NCBI GenBank assembly: GCA_965223265.1
Contig: OZ244999.1
Location: 7,712,001 to 7,776,000, forward strand
Direction of reading: 5' to 3'
DNA from: Planctomycetota bacterium
Lineage (GTDB): Bacteria > Planctomycetota > UBA8108 > SXIK01
Length of the DNA stretch: 64,000 nucleotides
Shown piece after piece: positions 20,583-29,732 of the stretch. The notes under the pieces are model-generated. The model had not been told where the DNA came from. It worked only from the letters and a program-made list of their open reading frames with translations, and searched no databases. Every line of letters begins with the position of its first letter. The stretch's first letter is position 1. A program made the translations under genes and the position numbers.

Positions 20583-20814
20583 GCCGGCCCTCCAGACAAA
20601 GCACCGATTGGACGCCCCGCGGTGGTTGTGATGATGCGGTCGACACGTGTAGTCTCCGCAGGGCGACGCAGCGCGCGGGGCGATCTTTTCGTCGTTTCAT
20701 CGCAACTCTTTCAGGTTACTCTGGAGCCTGACGAAGCGTCCGCCGCAAAACGGGTGGCGCTCGCTGCACGCTGCATCCATTCGTGAACATCAAGTCACCG
20801 AGAGTCTCTTGGAG

Positions 20815-23800
20815 ATGGCTATGTCCGCTTGCTCACGACGGCGCTTTCGATCTATCGCCTTCGCACTGCTCGTATCGATCACCTCAAGCCAGGCGATCGC
20901 CGCTGACGCGCCGGGTGACGTCGTGGGACGTTTCCTCGACGAAGTCAATCTCGACCGCGGCATCGTGTCGCTCGTCACGCTAGGGGACGGTCATTTGGCG
21001 ACGACTGTTGCCGAGCTCGGCGAATTCATGGTGCATGGCTGGGAACCGGATGCAGCGCGCGCTCAAGCGGCTCGCGAGCGCGCAGTCGCCGATCATCGCC
21101 ACGGGCGGACGATCACGATTGAGCGCGGCGACTTGGAACGTCTCCCGTACGCTGACAACACGGTCGACATCATCATCGCCGCCCATTTGACGAAAGCCCA
21201 ACTGCAGCGCCTCAGAGCTGAGGAGGTTCTTCGCTGCCTTCGACCTCGCGGGAGCGCTTTCGTCGGCAGTTTCGAGACCCGCGGGAGCAACTACGTCGAC
21301 GCCGCGGCGCTCAATGCCTGGCTGAAGCGCGGTGAGCAGGACGACACCGTAGCAAGGGTGACTCCCAGCGACGGCACGTGGGTCAAGTTGACGAAGGCGC
21401 CACTCGAAGGAGCGGACGATTGGAGCCACTGGGAGCACGGCCCGGACAACAACCCGGTCTCGAACGACGCGATCGCGAAGGCGCCGTACATGACACAGTG
21501 GCTCGGTCGACCCTACTACATCGCCATGCCTGCGGTGACGACCGCCGCCGGTGGCCGCATCTTCATCGCCATGGGCCACATCGCGCATCACGAACGCGAA
21601 GAGCCGTGGCTCAACACCCTCATGGCGCGCAACGGTTACAACGGCACGATCCTTTGGCGTCGCAAGCTTCCCGACGGATACCTCGTCCACCGCTCGGCGT
21701 TCATCGCCACCGCGCAAACCTTTTACATGATCGATATGGACGGAAGTGGTTGCCTGCTCCTCGATCCAGAGACGGGAGATGAGAAGGGGCGGATTCGAAT
21801 GCGTGCGGCACGCGGGCAGTGGAAATGGATGGCACTGAAGGACGGAATACTCTACGCGCTCATCGGGGCCCAGAAGGATCCACCACAAACGACCATCGTG
21901 CGCAGCTCGATGTCGCACTGGAGCTGGGCTGAGCTGAGCAAGGGGTATTACTCGCAGCAGGTGCCATGGGGATTCGGGAAGACGCTCGTTGCCTACGATG
22001 TGGCCGCTGAGTCGGTTGTCTGGAAACACGTTGAGACGGCACCGATCGATTCCCGTTCCATGACGATCGGATCGGACAGCGTCTACCTCTACGCCCCCGG
22101 TTCACGCGCCGTCGCGCTCGACGTCAAGAGCGGTGCACCGCGGTGGGAGAATCGCGACGCTTCCGTCACGACACTCATCGAGGAGTCGGGTCGCGGGCTG
22201 TCGTCGACACCGGGGTTCCGCACCATGAACTTTTGCCTCTACACTCCAGAGGCGCTCGTCTTCCAAGCCCAGACGCGCATGAACGTCGTCGCCCTGTCGC
22301 CAGCAACCGGCAAGCTCCTTTGGCATCGTCCGAAGACGAGCAGCAACCCAAACGCTCTCTACGTCGGCGAGCAACTTGTCGTCGGCATCGGGGAGAACGG
22401 CGAGAATCTTATGGTGGACGCCAAGACTGGGAAGACGCTCGCCAGCCTGAAATTCTCAAAGCGCGCCTGCGCACGGCTCACCGCGACGGCGGATTCACTT
22501 TTCTGTCGCGGCTGGCCGGATGGATTGACGCGATTTGACCGCTACACCAAGGAAGTGCAGGCGAACGGTGCGGTGCGCCCGTCGTGCAACGACGGCGTCA
22601 TCGCGGCAAACGGTCTCCTCTACATGGGACCTTGGTTGTGTGATTGCAACCTGACTCTGATGGGTCGTGTCGTCATGTGCGCCGCTGGCGACTTCGACTT
22701 TGATGGCGCGCACCGACGCACGCCAGCTCTCGAGGTTGCCGCGACGGAGCTCAATGCAGCGCCCCTCGAAGTGACTCCAGCCGACTGGTCATCGCACCGT
22801 GCAAACGCAGCGCGCAGCGGCAGCTCGCCGGTCACTCTCGACGAAACGCTCTCTTGGGTTTGGGATCGCGCCCCGGCAGCCGCTGACTCCTTCGTGCCCA
22901 CGACGATGACAAGCACCGGCAATCTGCTTCTGATCGGCGGCGACGACGGAAGCGTGCGGGCGTTCGAGACCGTGATGGGAAACGAAGCATGGCGATTCCA
23001 CACCGCTGGACGCATCATGCAGCCCCCAACGGTGTGGGAGGGCAGAGCCTTCGTCGGCTCTGGCGACGGCTACGTCTACGCCCTGGAGGTGCGCACCGGC
23101 AAACTCCTGTGGCGTTTTCGCGCTGCACCGGCCGAGAGGCGCATCCCGGTGTACGGCCACCTCTCTTCGACCTGGCCGGTGCACGGCGGAGTGCTGGTCG
23201 CCGATGGCGTCGCGTACTTCGCGGCGGGCATTATCGACTACGACTCGACACATGTTTACGCCGTCGACGCGCGCAGCGGCAAGCTGCTTTGGCATAACGG
23301 ATCGACGGGACACCTCGATCCGAAACTGCGCAAGGGAGTCTCCGCGCAGGGCAATCTGACCCTGGCGGGAGGACGCCTATGGCTCGCAGCTGGTAACGTC
23401 TGCTCGCCCGCAGCCTTCGACCTTGCGAGTGGTCGCTACGTCGGCAAATCAGCCGGCGATGGCGCGCCGCAAACGAATCGGGGCGAAGAGATCGCGGTTT
23501 TCAAGAACCGCCACGTCATCTTGGGAGGTCGCCTGCGGTTTTCAGCCACGAAGAACGTGGTGAACCCCGGCTTCTTCGAGACCCATGCCCTCACGGACAC
23601 CGGCAGCAAGAATCCCGTCCACCTCGCCAGCGGCAAGATCCCTCCTGTCTGGAATGATGACTACTTTGTCGCCGTCGATGGTCGACTCGAGCCCGCGGTT
23701 TGCTACAGGACGAGCGAGGTCGAGCGAGCCTTCGACGCGGGAGAGCGTCTGCGCACCTTGACGCCGGTGTGGAGTGCCGAGGCCCTCAAAGAAAAGAACA

Positions 23801-24726
23801 TTGTCTCGCTCGCCCTCACGGTGAAAGACCTCCTCGTGGTCTTCGAGGAGAAACAAGCTCGTAGCCTCGCGACGAAGTGGCACATTGCCGCATTCGCACT
23901 TGAAGACGGCACCGAGAAGTGGCGCCAAGGGCTCGACAAACCCGCCGCCACAGGCGCTCTTCTCGTCGATCGCTCCGGGCGTGTCGTCGTCGCATTCCAG
24001 GATGGCGGACTTGTCTGCTTTGGGCCACGGGCGGCGTTCGATGCGATCGTCGACGATATCTCGAAGCGCGCCAAAAGCGACACGGACCTTGCGTGGCGCA
24101 AGAGCGCGATCGGCCAACTCGAGAAGCTTCTCGACACCGCTGCTGATGGCGACCTGACGGTCGAAGTACTGAAGCGTCTGAAAGAATTCGGCGTCGATCC
24201 CACAGCCGCGGGCAGACGTCACGGCGCAGTCACGATCTGGCGTACCACCGGACCAGTACCATGGACCGAGGACGCCCCTGCTGATCACGTGTTCGTCGGT
24301 GAGCCGTATGTGGATGTCCATCGCGCCACTGAGTTCGGTGGCAGACAATTGAACTGGAATTTGCGCGTGTCGACTGATCGCTACGGTATGGTCGATCTCG
24401 CGCCGCGCTATGGCCGTCTGGGTCAGGCCGCCGTCTACGCGCACGCCGAGATCGTTTTGCCGAAAGCTCAAAGGATGGTCATGCGTCTTGGTTCGAACGA
24501 TGGCTTCAAGGTTTGGTTCAACGGCCAGGAGATTGGAAAACTCGAGAGCGGTCGTGGCTACATCCCCGATAGTGACGCTTTCGAAGTTGAGGGCCGCGCC
24601 GGTGCTAACGAGGTGTTGATCAAGGTCCTCAACTTGGGCAACCTCTGGTCGTACGGTGTTCGTTTCACCGACGCCGAAAAGAATCCAATCGCGTTCGAAC
24701 AGACTCTCTCTCTGGAATCGCCCTAA
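20815..24726 (+). CDS. Large exported protein: methyltransferase-like N-domain, two PQQ-type beta-propellers and a C-terminal PA14/galactose-binding-like domain
   Basis: Signal peptide. LPYADNTVD..EVLRCLRPxG (MTase-like), DDWSHWEHGPDNN, GSGDGYVYAL, STWPVHGG and GSNDGFKVWFNG. Start could be 20815 or 20821. Confidence 0.82.
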   Translation: MAMSACSRRRFRSIAFALLVSITSSQAIAADAPGDVVGRFLDEVNLDRGIVSLVTLGDGHLATTVAELGEFMVHGWEPDAARAQAARERAVADHRHGRTITIERGDLERLPYADNTVDIIIAAHLTKAQLQRLRAEEVLRCLRPRGSAFVGSFETRGSNYVDAAALNAWLKRGEQDDTVARVTPSDGTWVKLTKAPLEGADDWSHWEHGPDNNPVSNDAIAKAPYMTQWLGRPYYIAMPAVTTAAGGRIFIAMGHIAHHEREEPWLNTLMARNGYNGTILWRRKLPDGYLVHRSAFIATAQTFYMIDMDGSGCLLLDPETGDEKGRIRMRAARGQWKWMALKDGILYALIGAQKDPPQTTIVRSSMSHWSWAELSKGYYSQQVPWGFGKTLVAYDVAAESVVWKHVETAPIDSRSMTIGSDSVYLYAPGSRAVALDVKSGAPRWENRDASVTTLIEESGRGLSSTPGFRTMNFCLYTPEALVFQAQTRMNVVALSPATGKLLWHRPKTSSNPNALYVGEQLVVGIGENGENLMVDAKTGKTLASLKFSKRACARLTATADSLFCRGWPDGLTRFDRYTKEVQANGAVRPSCNDGVIAANGLLYMGPWLCDCNLTLMGRVVMCAAGDFDFDGAHRRTPALEVAATELNAAPLEVTPADWSSHRANAARSGSSPVTLDETLSWVWDRAPAAADSFVPTTMTSTGNLLLIGGDDGSVRAFETVMGNEAWRFHTAGRIMQPPTVWEGRAFVGSGDGYVYALEVRTGKLLWRFRAAPAERRIPVYGHLSSTWPVHGGVLVADGVAYFAAGIIDYDSTHVYAVDARSGKLLWHNGSTGHLDPKLRKGVSAQGNLTLAGGRLWLAAGNVCSPAAFDLASGRYVGKSAGDGAPQTNRGEEIAVFKNRHVILGGRLRFSATKNVVNPGFFETHALTDTGSKNPVHLASGKIPPVWNDDYFVAVDGRLEPAVCYRTSEVERAFDAGERLRTLTPVWSAEALKEKNIVSLALTVKDLLVVFEEKQARSLATKWHIAAFALEDGTEKWRQGLDKPAATGALLVDRSGRVVVAFQDGGLVCFGPRAAFDAIVDDISKRAKSDTDLAWRKSAIGQLEKLLDTAADGDLTVEVLKRLKEFGVDPTAAGRRHGAVTIWRTTGPVPWTEDAPADHVFVGEPYVDVHRATEFGGRQLNWNLRVSTDRYGMVDLAPRYGRLGQAAVYAHAEIVLPKAQRMVMRLGSNDGFKVWFNGQEIGKLESGRGYIPDSDAFEVEGRAGANEVLIKVLNLGNLWSYGVRFTDAEKNPIAFEQTLSLESP

Positions 24727-24738
24727 GGAGAATTCGTC

Positions 24739-25911
24739 GTGCTGGAGAACTGCGTCACAAAGCAGCCGTTTACGAACGCTCAGGGCACGGCGTGGTCTAG
24801 TGCGTGTCGTACGATCGCCGGCTGGCTCCCTCTCCTGTTCGCCACACTTGGCACCCCCCCCATGTCGATCCAGGCGTGCGACGACATGACCGTGCGCGAC
24901 GCGGCCTTTCAGGAAGCCCGTGACCTGCATCGACTCTGCGTCATCGCAAGCCCGGAGAGCCCGGAACTCGGACGTATCCATCAGCGCCTTGGCGCTTGGT
25001 TGACCAGTGCTGGAAAAGACCTGAACCTCGAGCTGACGACCATCGACGTCGATAGTCCGGAGGTTAAGTGGGAGAGCTTCGGCGTGCCTGGGCGGCCTCC
25101 CAGCTCGCCTGTCGTGATGCTCTCCGGTTTTCAGCGTGCTCACGGACGCGGTTTCTTCATCGACCACTGGGATCCGGAGCCGACCGAGGCGGACCTCGAA
25201 ACACTCGCCTCGTCCCCGACCAGAAAGCGTTTGCGAGAACTCCTGCCGACCAAAATCGCAGTGCTCGTCTACGCACCAGCGGCGATGTCGACCACGGGCG
25301 CGGAGGTCGCGGCGGAACGGCAGCGCATTGACGACGTGCTCGCCGGCAGCGTCAAGCGCTGGTCGGAACACGCGCTCGGCCTCGCTGTCCTGCGCCTTGA
25401 CCGCAGCGACCCGCGCGAGCGAACGCTCGCTTCCTTTTGTGGTCTCGCTCCGGACGGACCCGCCTGGGTCGGCGTCGTCTTCGGCCGCGGCAAGTTCGCA
25501 GAGCCACCACTGGCGGCGACGGAGATCACACGCGCCGCCATCGACGAGCTGATCGAAACCATTCTCGCCAAGTGCACGTGTCTGTCGCAAGCGGCAAAGC
25601 TCGGCGTCGACCTGCCGATGGTTTGGCGTGAAGCCGACGACAAGCGCGTGCTGCCAACGATCAAAGCTGGCGCTGTCGCAGAAGGATCGACGGATGCCAC
25701 GGACGCCTCCGCTACCCCGGATCTCATCGCGGCGATGTTTCCCAAGGGCGCGCCCGCGGCACCGACCGCATCGCTGGTCGATGTAACGGAGCCCGCACCG
25801 CGCCAACGCGGTGGTTTTTTCGCTGCTGCACTTTGGCTGCTCGGCGCTGGCGCGCTCGCGCTCTTCGTCGGAACCATCGTGATCGTGCGACGGCGCACAG
25901 TAGCGTCGTAG
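24739..25911 (+). CDS. Exported, C-terminally anchored hypothetical protein (thioredoxin-like fold suspected)
   Basis: AAGGAG RBS before GTG. Motifs VFGRG and CTC...GVDL. C-terminal TM followed by RRR. Confidence 0.7.
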   Translation: MLENCVTKQPFTNAQGTAWSSACRTIAGWLPLLFATLGTPPMSIQACDDMTVRDAAFQEARDLHRLCVIASPESPELGRIHQRLGAWLTSAGKDLNLELTTIDVDSPEVKWESFGVPGRPPSSPVVMLSGFQRAHGRGFFIDHWDPEPTEADLETLASSPTRKRLRELLPTKIAVLVYAPAAMSTTGAEVAAERQRIDDVLAGSVKRWSEHALGLAVLRLDRSDPRERTLASFCGLAPDGPAWVGVVFGRGKFAEPPLAATEITRAAIDELIETILAKCTCLSQAAKLGVDLPMVWREADDKRVLPTIKAGAVAEGSTDATDASATPDLIAAMFPKGAPAAPTASLVDVTEPAPRQRGGFFAAALWLLGAGALALFVGTIVIVRRRTVAS

Positions 25912-25979
25912 CATCGCTCGGACCCTCAAGCGCTCGAGACGCAGGCGGGCGAGGCACCGTTTGCGCATCGGACGTTTCC

Positions 25980-26093
25980 GTGGGAGTGGGAGTCGAGTGG
26001 GAGTCGAGTGGGAGTCGGAGTGGGCGAGTGCGTTTGCGAGTGCGTGGGCGTGGGCGTGCGAGTCGGAGTGGGGGTGGGAGCGGGAGTCGGAGT
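25980..26093 (+). repeat. Degenerate G-rich hexamer tandem array (GGGAGT / GCGAGT / GGGCGT / CGGAGT)
   Basis: Read directly. About 19 imperfect units, roughly complementary to the array at 26253-26468. Confidence 0.85.
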
Positions 26094-26252
26094 AGGACCC
26101 TACAGTTGCACAAGTTCTCCGCGGAGGGAGCCAGAAATCAGAAACCCTTGTCCTCAGGTTCGATCGACGGCTGTAGGGCGTCGCGGCGGGTTTCATGCTT
26201 GGTGAGGATTGCCGGTGTGCGATGGACCGAACCGGCGCCGACCCGTGTCTCG

Positions 26253-26468
26253 CACACGCAAACTCTCACTCTCACGCACACTCTCACGCACACTCTCACG
26301 CACACTCTCACGCACACTCTCACGCACACGCACACTCTCACGCACACGCACACGCACACGCACACTCTCACGCACACTCTCACGCACACTCTCACGCACA
26401 CTCTCACGCACACGCACACGCACACCCACACCCACACGGTCACGCAATCGCAATCGCAATCACGCACG
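26253..26468 (+). repeat. Tandem array of the 12-mer CACACTCTCACG interspersed with CACACG hexamers, ending in CAATCG units
   Basis: Read directly. About 36 hexamers, with no stop codon in any frame. Confidence 0.97.
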
Positions 26469-26525
26469 GCCTTGAAACGCTTCTTTTGCAGCTTGGAGTG
26501 GGAGTGGGTGGCGGTGATCACCGTA

Positions 26526-26579
26526 CGGCGGCGGTCATTGTCGAGCGTACGCGGTGCTCGGAACCGTCAAGGGTGCCCT
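26526..26579. repeat. Left arm of a ~54-bp imperfect inverted repeat (partner 27265-27318)
   Basis: Reverse complement AGGGCACCCTTGACG...TACGCTCGACAATGACCGCCGCCG matches AGGGCACCCGTGACG...TACGCTCGACAAT-ACCGCCGCCG at 27265. Confidence 0.9.
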
Positions 26580-26656
26580 GGAACGGCACACGGAGTGTGC
26601 CGGCTACTATAAAGACGTCGCCTACTCGATCTTAGGCACGCTCCGTGTGCCGTTCC
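26580..26656. repeat. REP-like inverted doublet (REPIN-like)
   Basis: GGAACGGCACACGGAGTGTGCC (26580-26601) and GGCACGCTCCGTGTGCCGTTCC (26635-26656) are 21/22 reverse-complementary. Each is itself a hairpin, with CTAC or TAG next to it. Confidence 0.8.
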
Positions 26657-26809
26657 GAAGGTGAACGCCAAGCGTGGACCGGGAGTTGCGCTGGCGCGCT
26701 CCAAAAAACTTCACAGCTCGGCTGTGCTTGCTACTTAGGAGAATGCCTCTGGTGCCCCCCGCCTCAAACCCGCCGCGCGAAAAAGCACGACGGGCCCAAA
26801 ACCCCAAGC

Positions 26810-27133
26810 TCAGCGCGTCAGCTTCCAAAGCATCGCCTGCAGCTCGTCGACGTCCGCAAGCACCGAAGCTGTCTCCTGCGCATCGACGTAACCCCAAGCT
26901 TCAGCAACACGAAGCGCCGTACGCACCTCTTCGGCACTGCCTGAAGCAACACGCCAAAGATGCCCGCGGTCACGACCAGAGCGCCGATTGCCCTCGCCCA
27001 GATTCAGCGCCACGGAGGACCCCGCGTCGCGCAGCTGAGCGGCAAGCCTCGAGTCATGACGACGCACAGAAGCTACAAGCGGACGCAACTGACGAACGAT
27101 GCCAACAGAGTGATCCAAAGCGAGAAAGCCCAT
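26810..27133 (-). CDS. Four helix bundle protein (23S rRNA IVP / Avd-like fold)
   Basis: 107 aa. QLRDAGSSVALNLGEG...VASGSAEE matches the family pattern QxxRAxxSxxxNIAEG...AxGSxxE. GGAG lies 7 nt before the ATG. Confidence 0.9.
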   Translation of the reverse strand: MGFLALDHSVGIVRQLRPLVASVRRHDSRLAAQLRDAGSSVALNLGEGNRRSGRDRGHLWRVASGSAEEVRTALRVAEAWGYVDAQETASVLADVDELQAMLWKLTR

Positions 27134-27140
27134 GAGAAGA

Positions 27141-27212
27141 CTCCGGTCAACCGGTTGAGTGAAACTCTCGCCGCACGCCCGACGCGGCGGCGTTTCACTC
27201 CCCGAGCCGGAG
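27141..27212 (-). promoter_or_regulatory. Structured 5' leader of the four-helix-bundle gene (nested stems that could sequester the RBS)
   Basis: GAGTGAAAC (27157-27165) / GTTTCACTC (27192-27200) stem, with an inner CGCCGC/GCGGCG pair. Palindrome TCAACCGGTTGA (27147-27158). CTCCGG (27141-27146) / CCGGAG (27207-27212) covers the RBS. Confidence 0.55.
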
Positions 27213-27264
27213 GGCGGACGGGGTGCGGTCACTCTCAGAAGGCGCGAAGCGCCGAGCGTCAGCG

Positions 27265-27318
27265 AGGGCACCCGTGACGCCGTCCGCACTCCGGCTACGC
27301 TCGACAATACCGCCGCCG
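27265..27318. repeat. Right arm of the ~54-bp imperfect inverted repeat (partner 26526-26579)
   Basis: See the left arm. 14/15 identity at one end, 23 nt with a 1-nt indel at the other, and a divergent middle. Confidence 0.9.
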
Positions 27319-27346
27319 CAAACGCCCCTTGGCGGCACACCTCTTC

Positions 27347-27610
27347 TCTGCTTCTGTCTCTGCTTCTGTCTCTGCTTCTGTCTCTGCTTCTGTCTCTGCT
27401 TCTGTCTCTGCTTCTGTCTCTGCTTCTGTCTCTGCTTCTGTCTCTGCTTCTGTCTCTGCTTCTGTCTCTGCTTCTGTCTCTGCTTCTGTCTCTGCTTCTG
27501 TCTCTGCTTCTGTCTCTGATTCTGTCTCTGATTCTGTCTCTGCTTCTGTCTCTGCTTCTGTCTCTGCTTCTGTCTCTGCTTCTGTCTCTGATTCTGTCTC
27601 TGATTCCGAC
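27347..27610 (+). repeat. Tandem array of the 12-mer TCTGCTTCTGTC, 22 units
   Basis: 14 perfect units, 2 TCTGAT variants, 4 perfect, 1 variant, and a final degenerate TCTGATTCCGAC. Confidence 0.98.
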
Positions 27611-27683
27611 CAATCGCCGTTTTCGCTTCGCCTACCGTGTGCGTGCTAGCTTTCCGCCTCTATCTCAACACGCTGTTCAGCGA

Positions 27684-29507
27684 TCAAGGCGCGGTGCGAG
27701 CCAGCACGCAGCGAAACCCCACGGCATCGTCGCGCAGGTCCCGCGGCGCACCGCGGCGCGCTGTGCTGGTGCAGCCGACCGCGCTATCTTTCCAACTGCC
27801 ACCACGCAGGACGCGCTGGCTGCCGCCACTGGCGTGCCGGGCGGAACCGTCGACCGGCGCGCCGTCGTGGGTGTCATGCCAAACGTCTTCGCACCACTCC
27901 CACAAGTAGCCGTGGACGTCGTAGAGCTGCCAAGGATTCGGGAGCTTGGCACCAACCGGTGGGTCGTTGCCCTTGGCATTGCCGCGGTACCAACCAAAGT
28001 TCGTTAAATCCTCTTCGCCGTCACCGAACGAGTAGGTTGTGGTCGTGCCGGCGCGAGCGCAGTACTCCCACTCGGCCTCGCTCGGGAGCCGCACGACTTC
28101 GTCGGCTGCGATCAATCCGGCGGCACGCAGCAACGCCGTCGCGCGCGCGCAAAAAGTACGCGCCGCATCGAACGACACCATCTCGACTGAGTTGCGAGCA
28201 CCCTGCCAGCGACTCGGGTTGCGGCCCATCACGGCGGTCCAAAGGTTTTGGTGTACTTCGTACGCCGCTACCGAGAACGGCGTTTCAAAACGCACGCGCG
28301 ACGCGGGTCCTTCGCTGGACGGTCCCCCGTCACGGCCACGCATGAACTCCGACGCGAAACCGTCGCTCCCAACCTCGATCGGCACAAACTCGCTGCGAAA
28401 GATCGTTAGTACCCGTTTCTCCTCGTTGGACAGCAGGCGATGCCCCGTCACATTCAGTGGGATGCGGTAAAGGCTCAAATCAACCGTGATGTAGAGAACG
28501 TGACTCTCGTCGCCGCGGCCAAAACAGCAGTTGCTGGGCAGCCCAACGGGTGCTGCAGCACCCGGCTGGGAAGGTCCCGTCGGGATGAAGGCGACCTCAG
28601 TGCCTTTTGAATCGATCACGAGAACGCCCGGTCGCCCTGGATCGCGCAGCGTGATGTAGACATTGCCGAGGCTGTCGATGGTCATTCCATCGCAGCCGGC
28701 ACGCGTACCGAAGTCGACCAGCGTGAAACGTTCGCCCGTCGCCAAGCCGTCGGCGTCGAGGGGAAAGGCATAGATCTTCATGGCGCCGGGTTTCGGCTTC
28801 GGCGCGGTCGGATCTATGCGGTCCGTGCCGTTGTTGTGGTCCGCAACGTACAGCGTCCGCTCGTCGGGGCTCAAAACGATGCCGTTCGGTTTCTCGACGT
28901 TGTGGGTGATCTCCTGAATCTTGCCGTCGGGATTCAGACGATAGACCGCGCGATGCTCCAGCTCGCGAGGCTCGGTGCCGACGTAGCGCGGATCGGTGAA
29001 GTAGATCCGCCCGCCGCTGTCGATGACGAGATCATTCGGAGCGTTCAGTCGTTTGCCATCGAACGAATCGACGAGCACTTCGCTCGTTGCGGTTTCAACG
29101 TTCCACCGCACCACCGCGCGACCACCGTGGTCGGAACCTTGGCAGGCAACGAGATCACCGTCTGCGTCAAACATGAGCCCGTTTGACTTACCACTATCGG
29201 CCGTGAACACGGTCGTCGCGCGCGTACGCGGGTCGAATTGAAGAATCATGCCGCGATCAGCGCCAAACGGAATGTCGGTGAAATAGATCGTACCGTCCGG
29301 AGCCACGGCTGGACCCTCCGTCAGACCGCCGTCGATGGCGACGCTCCGTGTGTAGAGTAGCTCCAGTTTGGCATCAGGCGAGACGATGCTGTCGCCGGAC
29401 GGTCGCAGCTCAACGGCCTCCACCGCGGCGAACGAACCAAGCAACAGAGCGAGGGCGAGAGTGATCACCGGTAAAACAACGGTCACGCGAAAAGGGAAAA
29501 CGTCCAT
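27684..29507 (-). CDS. SMP-30/gluconolactonase beta-propeller fused to a C-terminal FGE-sulfatase (CLec-fold) domain, exported
   Basis: Signal peptide after ATG 29507. SMP-30 motifs TEGP, SNGL, LNAPNDL, YFTDP, PNGI, CDGM and SNCCFG. FGE motifs RLPSEAEWEY, LYDVHGYLWEW, RGGSW and GFR. Confidence 0.88.
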   Translation of the reverse strand: MDVFPFRVTVVLPVITLALALLLGSFAAVEAVELRPSGDSIVSPDAKLELLYTRSVAIDGGLTEGPAVAPDGTIYFTDIPFGADRGMILQFDPRTRATTVFTADSGKSNGLMFDADGDLVACQGSDHGGRAVVRWNVETATSEVLVDSFDGKRLNAPNDLVIDSGGRIYFTDPRYVGTEPRELEHRAVYRLNPDGKIQEITHNVEKPNGIVLSPDERTLYVADHNNGTDRIDPTAPKPKPGAMKIYAFPLDADGLATGERFTLVDFGTRAGCDGMTIDSLGNVYITLRDPGRPGVLVIDSKGTEVAFIPTGPSQPGAAAPVGLPSNCCFGRGDESHVLYITVDLSLYRIPLNVTGHRLLSNEEKRVLTIFRSEFVPIEVGSDGFASEFMRGRDGGPSSEGPASRVRFETPFSVAAYEVHQNLWTAVMGRNPSRWQGARNSVEMVSFDAARTFCARATALLRAAGLIAADEVVRLPSEAEWEYCARAGTTTTYSFGDGEEDLTNFGWYRGNAKGNDPPVGAKLPNPWQLYDVHGYLWEWCEDVWHDTHDGAPVDGSARHASGGSQRVLRGGSWKDSAVGCTSTARRGAPRDLRDDAVGFRCVLARTAP

Positions 29508-29732
29508 GTCGCATCTCTTTTGGCAGATCAAGTCAAACGTCGTGAATCGTGCGAAAGCAACCCCGCCGGTAGGAATCCCTCGAGATCCCGGGCGCCCCCT
29601 GCGGCGTCGGACCGTCTCAATTGCGGCACGACCCTGCACTTCGAAGCTCGGGCGGCGTGTCAACACGGCGGGCACCGGGGGCACGGTATCGGACGAACCC
29701 CTGCGCCGTCCAAACGAAATCGCCGAGAAAGA

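Follow-up and report, generated by a model that had tools for sequence, protein, structure and literature searches.

Few small gene families that lack an assigned function are as common as the S23p family of four-helix-bundle proteins, whose members often occur in dozens of copies, and the hexamer and heptamer tandem arrays that lie between bacterial genes are a separate, old puzzle. Both come together in a 64,000-nucleotide (nt) stretch of a planctomycete genome (Planctomycetota bacterium, GCA_965223265.1, contig OZ244999.1, positions 7,712,001 to 7,776,000 of the forward strand; hereafter the window), in which a four-helix-bundle gene on the minus strand (26810-27133) stands among hexamer-based arrays, a palindromic doublet and what look like two inverted arms. 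What is this locus, what sets its bounds, and what ties the gene to the arrays? A first-pass annotation, made from the letters alone, proposed a non-autonomous element bounded by the inverted repeat, with arrays made or maintained by an enzyme encoded elsewhere, whether a reverse transcriptase (RT), a RAYT (the transposase associated with repetitive extragenic palindromes, REPs) or something similar, and with a protein that binds repeat RNA or single-stranded DNA.

Here we describe the locus as a member of a multicopy family of units, laid out as array, leader of about 200 nt with a long hairpin, 107-codon gene, hairpin and array, and we find that its apparent inverted repeat arises from the remnant of a second unit and is not a boundary. 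Intergenic hexamer and heptamer arrays are tied to the S23p family, in this genome and far beyond it. Coordinates refer to the whole window unless given as genome positions; the genome is one 9.18-Mb contig without N.

A multicopy family of units

The genome holds 39 matches to PF05635, 36 of them over the cut-off, which comprise 17 type-A units (the window's included), 19 type-B units and 3 remnants. Types A and B encode proteins of 107 residues each, with 50% identity between the types. Judged by eye, the stretch from 6.7 to 9.2 Mb contains many of the 39 matches.

The first-pass call of a four-helix-bundle gene at 26810-27133 is borne out by profiles and by structure prediction. The product matches PF05635 (E 1.1e-14; 55 bits, cut-off 33.8) and TIGR02436 (57.6 bits, cut-off 24), and because the profile match spans positions 26-105 only, we assign it to a divergent clade of PF05635/TIGR02436. 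An AlphaFold2 model based on 17 aligned relatives has a predicted local distance difference test (pLDDT) score of 97.2, with helices at residues 4-24, 28-49, 53-80 and 85-106. Foldseek places it close to XCC0516 (2GSC; template modelling (TM) score 0.86), BT_0352 (2RLD; TM 0.89) and Avd, a protein of diversity-generating retroelements (DGRs; 4DWL; TM 0.84), and phmmer connects it with 2GSC at E 4.8e-6. XCC0516 is described as a homopentamer (PMC4990558). All 36 open reading frames (ORFs) are intact, and the pairwise ratio of nonsynonymous to synonymous divergence (dN/dS) is 0.14 among type-A genes (136 pairs) and 0.13 among type-B genes (171 pairs), at a mean dS of about 0.5. Both protein types are thus kept by purifying selection.

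The resemblance between units extends well outside the ORF. In gene orientation their order is a tandem array, a short subfamily-specific junction, a conserved box (GGCGGCGGT..TTGTCGA.CGTA), a long hairpin, a small hairpin, a GGAG motif about 7 nt before the ATG, the ORF, a G+C-rich hairpin and, often, another array. The window's type-A unit, which lies entirely on the minus strand, follows this plan. Its upstream array (27345-27606), for which 22 repeats had been counted, comprises 21.8 copies of TCTCTGCTTCTG with 98% matches according to Tandem Repeats Finder (TRF), or (CAGAAGCAGAGA)21.8 on the coding strand. The leader (27134-27344), defined by the consensus of copies and by covariation, contains the subfamily-specific junction to the array, the conserved box (27295-27317), the long hairpin (approximately 27206-27294), the small hairpin (27157-27200) and GGAG (27141-27144), 7 nt before the ATG of the intact gene of 107 codons plus stop. 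After the stop comes a conserved 3' tail with the G+C-rich hairpin (26756-26809), recognized by comparison of copies.

The leader is conserved both in sequence and in structure. Over 190 nt its divergence (K) is 0.147 in type A and 0.134 in type B, compared with 0.340 and 0.410, respectively, at third codon positions, so that the leader has diverged less than half as much as these positions. An RNAalifold consensus of 31 leaders has 33 pairs, 11 of which show compensatory double changes between subfamilies; for both this consensus and the type-B value of K, the five type-B units with an insertion were left out. The leader, which had been called structured from a single copy, thus has a hairpin that is kept by compensatory changes.

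Arrays specific to unit type

A TRF array occurs within 500 nt of 36 of the 39 gene matches; among random positions drawn from the whole genome the share is 8.4%. For two classes of hexamer array the corresponding figures are 28 of 39 and 2.4%. Purine-rich arrays (GAGACA/CAGAAG-type, coding strand) stand upstream of 11 of the 17 type-A units and G/T-rich arrays (GTGGGN/GTGTGC-type, coding strand) upstream of 10 of the 19 type-B units, most remaining units having composite arrays of these kinds. Within each subfamily the junction between array and leader is fixed. Array type and strand thus go with unit type, and copy number differs between recent paralogs: seven copies of the A1 subfamily carry one and the same 12-mer at one and the same junction, with 26.8, 26.2, 25.6, 21.8, 20.0, 11.5 and about 1.5 repeats. 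Since these seven share one 12-mer and differ in repeat number, the arrays have been inherited with the unit and have then changed in length.

This pattern bears on the idea that an enzyme encoded elsewhere makes the arrays, as it speaks for inheritance and against arrays made anew. Nor was a clear sign found, in a comparison of each array with its own and with other units' leaders, that the leader serves as a template. The longest word in common averages 10.8 nt for an array and its own leader and 6.0 for other leaders, an excess that arises because an array overlaps the 190-nt leader segment or a leader is truncated; the window's own array shares 6 nt with its leader and 7.2 with others.

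Genome-wide, the two hexamer classes account for 102 and 117 arrays, and merged TRF arrays number 778. About 160 array loci have no gene copy within 1.5 kb, and the flanks are unique at about half of them. Where two arrays adjoin, the order is [GAGRCR]n followed by [ACGCMM]n in 13 of 18 pairs, 11 of the 13 being far from gene copies. Composite arrays of this kind (for example, at genome positions 467572-467877, 1663447-1663560, 1840727-1841032 and 2592469-2592606, often with unique flanks) may be empty sites or footprints of units; their order is the layout that would be expected if an A2-type unit had been lost by recombination between flanking ACGCMM arrays.

Two further observations concern the arrays as such. 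The hexamer arrays show a 2:1 bias in replication strand, with the purine-rich strand leading in 68 arrays and lagging in 34, and the G/T-rich strand lagging in 79 and leading in 38; cumulative GC skew is lowest near 7.9 Mb and highest near 3.5 Mb. A stretch at genome positions 487133-494513, which shortly precedes the four-helix-bundle gene at 496337, has GAGGCA arrays together with an 89-nt repeat at a spacing of about 1.7-1.9 kb and looks like larger units in tandem.

Origin of the apparent inverted repeat

The inverted arms are real, pairing 26537-26562 with 27283-27308 (81%) and 26565-26579 with 27265-27279 (93%), but they do not bound a cassette, as had been proposed. The left arm (26515-26579) is the first 65 nt of the conserved type-B leader, a module with 14 full-length matches in the genome, each in gene orientation and about 227 nt upstream of a type-B gene. 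The right arm is the corresponding stretch of the leader upstream of type-A genes.

The genome contains seven intact convergent A/B pairs, with the genes about 500-750 nt apart, and aligning the window with six of them explains the arrangement. Window positions 26498-26579 correspond to positions 33-116 of an intact pair, at the start of the type-B leader, and 26756-27345 to positions 982-1561, the type-A unit. Relative to intact pairs some 865 bp are missing, namely the rest of the type-B leader, the type-B gene and its tail, and their place is taken by a REP-like doublet (26580-26656) and by some 100 nt that are almost unique in the genome (26657-26755, by repeat comparison and blastn). What remains is a type-B stub on the plus strand (26496-26579), consisting of an 18-nt remnant of a GT-type array, the box GGCGGCGGT..TTGTCGAGCGTA and, cut off in its apical region, the type-B leader hairpin's 5' half. 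The window thus holds a decayed convergent A/B pair, whose type-B unit was cut inside the leader hairpin and now has a REP doublet in its place. Type-A and type-B leaders in intact pairs are 70-72% alike over about 206 nt, and two such homologous leaders facing each other give the appearance of the arms of an inverted-repeat cassette.

Flanks of the other units agree with this account. A strong inverted flank was found in only 1 of the 17 type-A units, the present one (z 13.3), whereas direct-repeat flanks with z>4 occur in 16 of 17 type-A and 9 of 19 type-B units. A transposon or miniature inverted-repeat transposable element with terminal inverted repeats is rejected, the flank analysis having revealed no inverted termini common to the copies. 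No transposase was found in the cassette, and no target-site duplication can be read because the outer ends lie in arrays.

The odd junction also raises the question of misassembly. Arrays do break short-read assemblies, and many of the copies in related genomes lie at contig ends. Contigs from four public runs bridge 26518-26788 without a single difference, so the junction is not misassembled; the runs, made on two samples from a single study, may themselves have supplied the assembly, and the comparison covered the part between the arrays. The uninterrupted single contig, together with the presence of one 12-mer array at seven loci with consistent junctions, also speaks against an assembly artefact, which we regard as extremely improbable for arrays and junction alike.

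Other mobile DNA in and around the units

The doublet at 26580-26656 was described by the first-pass annotation as REP-like, and it is a REP pair, with 22-nt arms (26580-26601 and 26635-26656; 95%) and 91 partial blastn hits. REP-like hairpins number 338 in the genome and 21 in a reversed-genome control, and 263 of them have a GTAG head; in the window's doublet one arm is headed by GTAG and the other by TTAG. A RAYT-like match to Y1_Tnp (27.3 bits, cut-off 23) is found at genome positions 4206881-4207093, directly beside a cluster of 7.6 REP units at 4207195-4207650, and this RAYT-like gene is likely the mobiliser of the 338 hairpins. The doublet therefore has the features of REP/REPIN elements (a high-copy GTAG-headed palindrome, an inverted pair and a RAYT gene in the genome), but it represents a separate repeat family and is not part of the unit. 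Many REP hairpins alternate with hexamer runs of the GT type.

A second mobile element is inserted in some type-B units. Along its 2.68 kb it codes for a large serine recombinase of 702 residues, with Resolvase, Recombinase and Zn_ribbon_recom domains, and it has an ORF of 149 residues to which no family could be assigned. Its six copies are 99.7-100% identical, one at genome positions 6779123-6781800 and the others near type-B genes at 7189350, 2584131, 8597418, 8979156 and 8835222. All six interrupt the type-B leader hairpin at one point, between GCGGTGCTC and AGGGGTGCC, which identifies the hairpin as an attachment site for the element. The equivalent site in the window, 26559/26560, is uninterrupted, and loose ends of the run contigs at 26560 show that junction. 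The serine-recombinase element is an insertion into the leader and not part of the unit.

The only RT genes in the genome are four identical RVT_1 copies, at 1895554, 3424405, 3516453 and 5913461, and among the gene matches listed the nearest to any of them is at 2042486, about 146 kb from the copy at 1895554. An RVT_1 search of the genome found no RT near any four-helix-bundle copy, and a DGR or a retron is rejected on that ground.

These results make a non-autonomous element bounded by the inverted repeat, with arrays supplied by an RT, a RAYT or a similar enzyme, rather improbable. Parts of that proposal do hold. The gene recurs with the arms and the arrays, the arrays vary in sequence from subfamily to subfamily and from genome to genome beside a conserved leader and gene, array motifs of similar composition occupy the homologous position in related genera, and the fold is that of Avd, which works with an RT on RNA (PMC10053308). 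Against it stand the origin of the inverted repeat as a by-product of facing leaders, the distance to the few RTs, the attachment of the RAYT-like gene to a different repeat, the array's match to its own leader being no clearer than to others, and the inheritance of the A1 arrays. Overall, the recurrence of gene, array and leader, together with the lack of a mobility enzyme of their own, stands from the first-pass interpretation, and the inverted repeat as cassette boundary falls.

Remaining features of the interval

Every feature that had been listed from the letters is present, at its place or within a few bases of it, according to TRF, repeat search and profiles. The locus does lie between two convergent ORFs, at 24739-25911 on the plus strand and 27684-29684 on the minus strand, the product of the latter having SGL and FGE-sulfatase domains. 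Repeated DNA covers the whole of 25960-27615, whereas the DNA just outside is unique in the genome.

From the left, the first component is a degenerate G-rich array based on hexamers of the GTGGGA/GTGGGC/GAGTCG type (25979-26097, plus strand; TRF periods 6, 12 and 24, 70-73% matches), of the class that type-B units have upstream, read on their coding strand. It is followed by a dispersed hairpin repeat, M1 (26098-26225; 20 blastn hits, with a core at query positions 41-92; folding energy -43.7 kcal/mol), whose hairpin is closed by CCCTACAG...CTGTAGGG and which includes the small stem previously noted at 26098-26178. The M1 core has about 20 partial copies genome-wide, mostly distant from four-helix-bundle genes. 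Next comes a C/A-rich array (26267-26461, plus strand), in which TRF recognizes 15 copies of CACTCTCACGCA at 26267-26446 (90% matches) and then 3.2 copies of CGCAAT; it belongs to the same class as the ACGCMM arrays beside other units. The type-B stub, REP doublet, spacer and type-A unit described above complete the interval.

Pfam assigns no family above its cut-off to the nine further ORFs of the interval, and so, as had been stated, no transposase, recombinase or RT is encoded there. An Rfam scan of 24000-29000 (E<=1) identified no known RNA family, giving three sub-threshold matches only, the best of them mir-Ro6-3 on the REP doublet (31 bits against a threshold of 79). Scans of the interval returned no promoter-like site and two terminator-like sites, where 1.6 are expected; a terminator-like hairpin on the minus strand in the spacer (26726-26712) is no more than chance level. 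Further upstream in the window, 20809-24726 (plus strand) encodes a 1305-residue ORF with a methyltransferase domain and PQQ/BamB-like beta-propeller repeats, which is unrelated to the finding.

The gene-array link beyond this genome

Among 41 related genomes, the present one included, seven have a match to the gene: the three genomes from the same family lack a match, and one from the same order has 13. Arrays of 6-mers or 7-mers with other sequences adjoin most of the copies in related genomes of the same order and class. The nearest of the genomes compared encodes a 59% identical relative of the 666-residue neighbour protein; within 18 kb around that relative the other three neighbours are absent and there is no synteny, and only weak short tandem repeats were seen, none at the 3' end of the gene.

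The closest relatives outside this group are mostly from Myxococcota. In 66 of 80 such loci an array is present within 600 nt, and array density is 1.42 per kb proximally and 0.47 distally. Upstream arrays in the Myxococcota clade end about 250 nt before the gene, and the sequence between folds into long hairpins (-100 to -190 kcal/mol over 250 nt). Leader motifs occupy fixed positions in about 20 of 53 loci of the clade, and among 42 of its loci 13 have direct and 6 have inverted flanks. One genome assembled from long reads has neighbouring copies with nearly identical leaders and different arrays.

The canonical members of PF05635 show the same association in another form. The family is present, often in many copies, in 168 of 301 Planctomycetota genomes sampled (the present genome included), and in the 30 best Planctomycetota loci, from 30 genomes, short arrays adjoin the gene in every case, with inverted flanks of 20-50 nt built of 7-9-mers in 27. 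We extended the comparison to 80 canonical loci, retrieved by means of four such proteins, aligned; going by their record titles, these loci come from more than 10 phyla. Inverted flanks (z>4) occur in 68 of these 80 loci and in none of 74 controls displaced by 600 nt. An array is found within 150 nt upstream in 73, downstream in 72 and on both sides in 66 of the 80, at a density of 6.5 arrays per kb within 150 nt compared with 0.7-1.0 per kb beyond. Array periods are multiples of 7 in 133 of 157 cases, and the heptamer varies from locus to locus while the downstream array stays the reverse complement of the upstream one. Canonical PF05635 loci thus have the architecture of an intervening sequence (IVS), a stem plus an ORF, outside rRNA, and the link between the gene family and tandem arrays holds far beyond this genome. 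The recurrence of homologs, arms and arrays that the first-pass annotation proposed to look for is supported, as is the variation of array sequence beside a conserved leader and gene.

This breadth also bears on whether arrays, REPs and small genes merely pile up by coincidence in the permissive intergenic DNA of a repeat-rich genome. The interval is indeed a mosaic of at least four kinds of repeat, and the genome abounds in merged TRF arrays, REP hairpins and hexamer-array loci away from the gene. The association, though, is specific in array type and strand and has a fixed junction, it recurs with other array sequences in other orders and phyla, and array density around canonical genes is 8-fold higher within 150 nt, with no inverted flanks in the displaced controls. 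Coincidence of junk is already disfavoured by these data, and we consider it very unlikely.

Interpretation

Our preferred explanation, to which we give a probability of about 0.55, is an IVS-like non-autonomous cassette embedded in arrays. The unit would be a cassette, selfish or semi-domesticated, of the kind represented by the ORF-bearing IVSs of 23S rRNA. Its hairpin and repeats are predicted to act on the transcript, most likely as a site of double-strand RNA processing or insulation, and they may also form a putative binding site for the oligomeric basic protein. In this lineage the cassette would sit inside arrays that flank it as direct repeats, copies could be lost or gained by recombination between like arrays, which would leave solo composite arrays at unique sites, and array length would change by slippage.

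Several observations weigh against this reading. In this genome the arrays flank the unit as direct rather than inverted repeats, so that they are unable to pair into the stem by which an intervening sequence is defined, and the hairpin precedes the ORF instead of enclosing it. The many array loci far from the gene imply that arrays need no gene in cis, and recombination alone does not account for arrays at unique sites; the cassette may insert into arrays, or the arrays may grow beside cassettes. The random positions with which array frequencies near the gene were compared were drawn from the genome at large, intergenic or not. The interval yielded no sigma-70-like promoter, and the transcription, processing and translation of the unit are predictions from DNA sequence. 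Finally, 36 copies under strong purifying selection at a dS near 0.5 are explained no less well by a gene family that benefits its host than by a selfish element.

That last point leads to an alternative that we consider unlikely, in which A and B are ordinary cellular nucleic-acid-binding proteins of a domesticated host family, the arrays are cis-regulatory (slippage-prone spacers, or tandem operators for the oligomer) and nothing is mobile today. With every ORF intact and dN/dS near 0.13, the dS values indicate that the copies are old and have been kept, and the conserved leader, the GGAG before the start codon and the placement of arrays at a fixed upstream distance, with copy number varying between paralogs, would all suit regulated host genes. 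A settled host family is harder to reconcile with the patchy distribution (38-39 copies here, none in the three genomes of the same family and 13 in one of the same order), with copies at unique and unrelated sites, with the existence of decayed copies (the present type-B stub and the three remnants) and with the nesting of other mobile DNA in the units.

Beyond the IVS-like cassette, a bolder generalization may be put forward as a speculation with rather low odds, in which PF05635 genes and arrays would together constitute one widespread class of self-propagating nucleoprotein elements. The protein would bind its own array, with roughly one subunit per repeat, and then either recruit a polymerase or nuclease acting in trans, by which the cassette would be copied and the arrays extended, or protect and process the hairpin RNA. 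Such a class, if real, would explain the function of the S23p/IVS protein and much of the intergenic heptamer and hexamer arrays in many phyla.

Comparison with known systems

Among the known systems closest to the units are the IVSs of 23S rRNA genes, found in Coxiella burnetii and, reportedly, in Leptospira as another example. The Coxiella IVS is described as a selfish element with an S23p ORF and a 28-bp terminal stem cut by RNase III, and it has two to three tandem heptamers at its 5' end, where the RNase III cut falls (Warrier et al. 2016, PMC4990558); the same paper cites the idea that the IVS ORF might serve mobility. The units share with these IVSs the S23p/PF05635 four-helix bundle, the combination of a small ORF, a strong hairpin and short tandem repeats, and a patchy distribution, the IVS being regarded as selfish. 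Canonical PF05635 genes, as distinct from the units of this genome, are moreover enclosed by inverted heptamer arrays. The units differ from IVSs in that they are not located in rRNA, the single 23S gene (genome positions 2007925-2010917) holding none of the 39 copies. Here, the hairpin precedes the ORF, the arrays are 100-320 nt long, are made of 6-mers or 12-mers and flank the unit as direct repeats, and no stem encloses the ORF, the window's inverted flank having come from the leader of a neighbouring unit. In contrast to the Coxiella IVS ORF, which is reported to be decaying, 36 intact copies are under purifying selection in this genome.

Avd of DGRs (PDB 4DWL, 8UBE) has the same fold, as the Foldseek score against 4DWL attests, and PF05635 has been reported as an Avd-like family (PMC10053308). 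The present gene differs in having no adjacent RT and in its sequence identity of 11-12%; template and variable repeats were not searched for. The likeness to REP/REPIN elements and their RAYTs (PMC2817692, PMC3116915, PMC3337134, PMC3733652) is confined to the doublet at 26580-26656, the four-helix-bundle unit, its leader and the arrays being a separate repeat family.

Short tandem arrays have been described from several bacteria. Those of Xanthomonas, with the unit GGGAATC, form 70-75 convergent pairs and lie by preference on the non-coding strand immediately upstream of ORFs and on the coding strand directly behind stops (Rehm et al. 2015, PMC4692102), and the heptamer arrays of Nostoc have the unit GGGGA(C/T)T (PMC4692102). 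Those of the Beggiatoaceae have the unit TAACTGA (MacGregor 2015, PMC4679880), and in Geobacter metallireducens paired inverted tandem 7-9-mers have been listed as putative regulator sites (Aklujkar et al. 2009, PMC2700814). The available parts of PMC4692102, PMC4679880 and PMC2700814 do not name the four-helix-bundle/S23p family as the enclosed ORF, nor is it mentioned in 12 of the 19 supplementary files of PMC2700814, and in the accessible portions of papers on UCYN-A, Arthrospira and the clustering of CRISPR the PF05635 family is only named in passing. Our literature search, which lay largely outside subscription journals, found the arrays and the gene family described separately and no paper linking them. 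The units resemble these bacterial heptamer arrays in the presence of short intergenic tandem arrays of about four to five units, and the convergent pairs of Xanthomonas have the very geometry of the inverted arrays around canonical PF05635 genes. If the link is functional, simple experiments could give a role to both the protein and the arrays.

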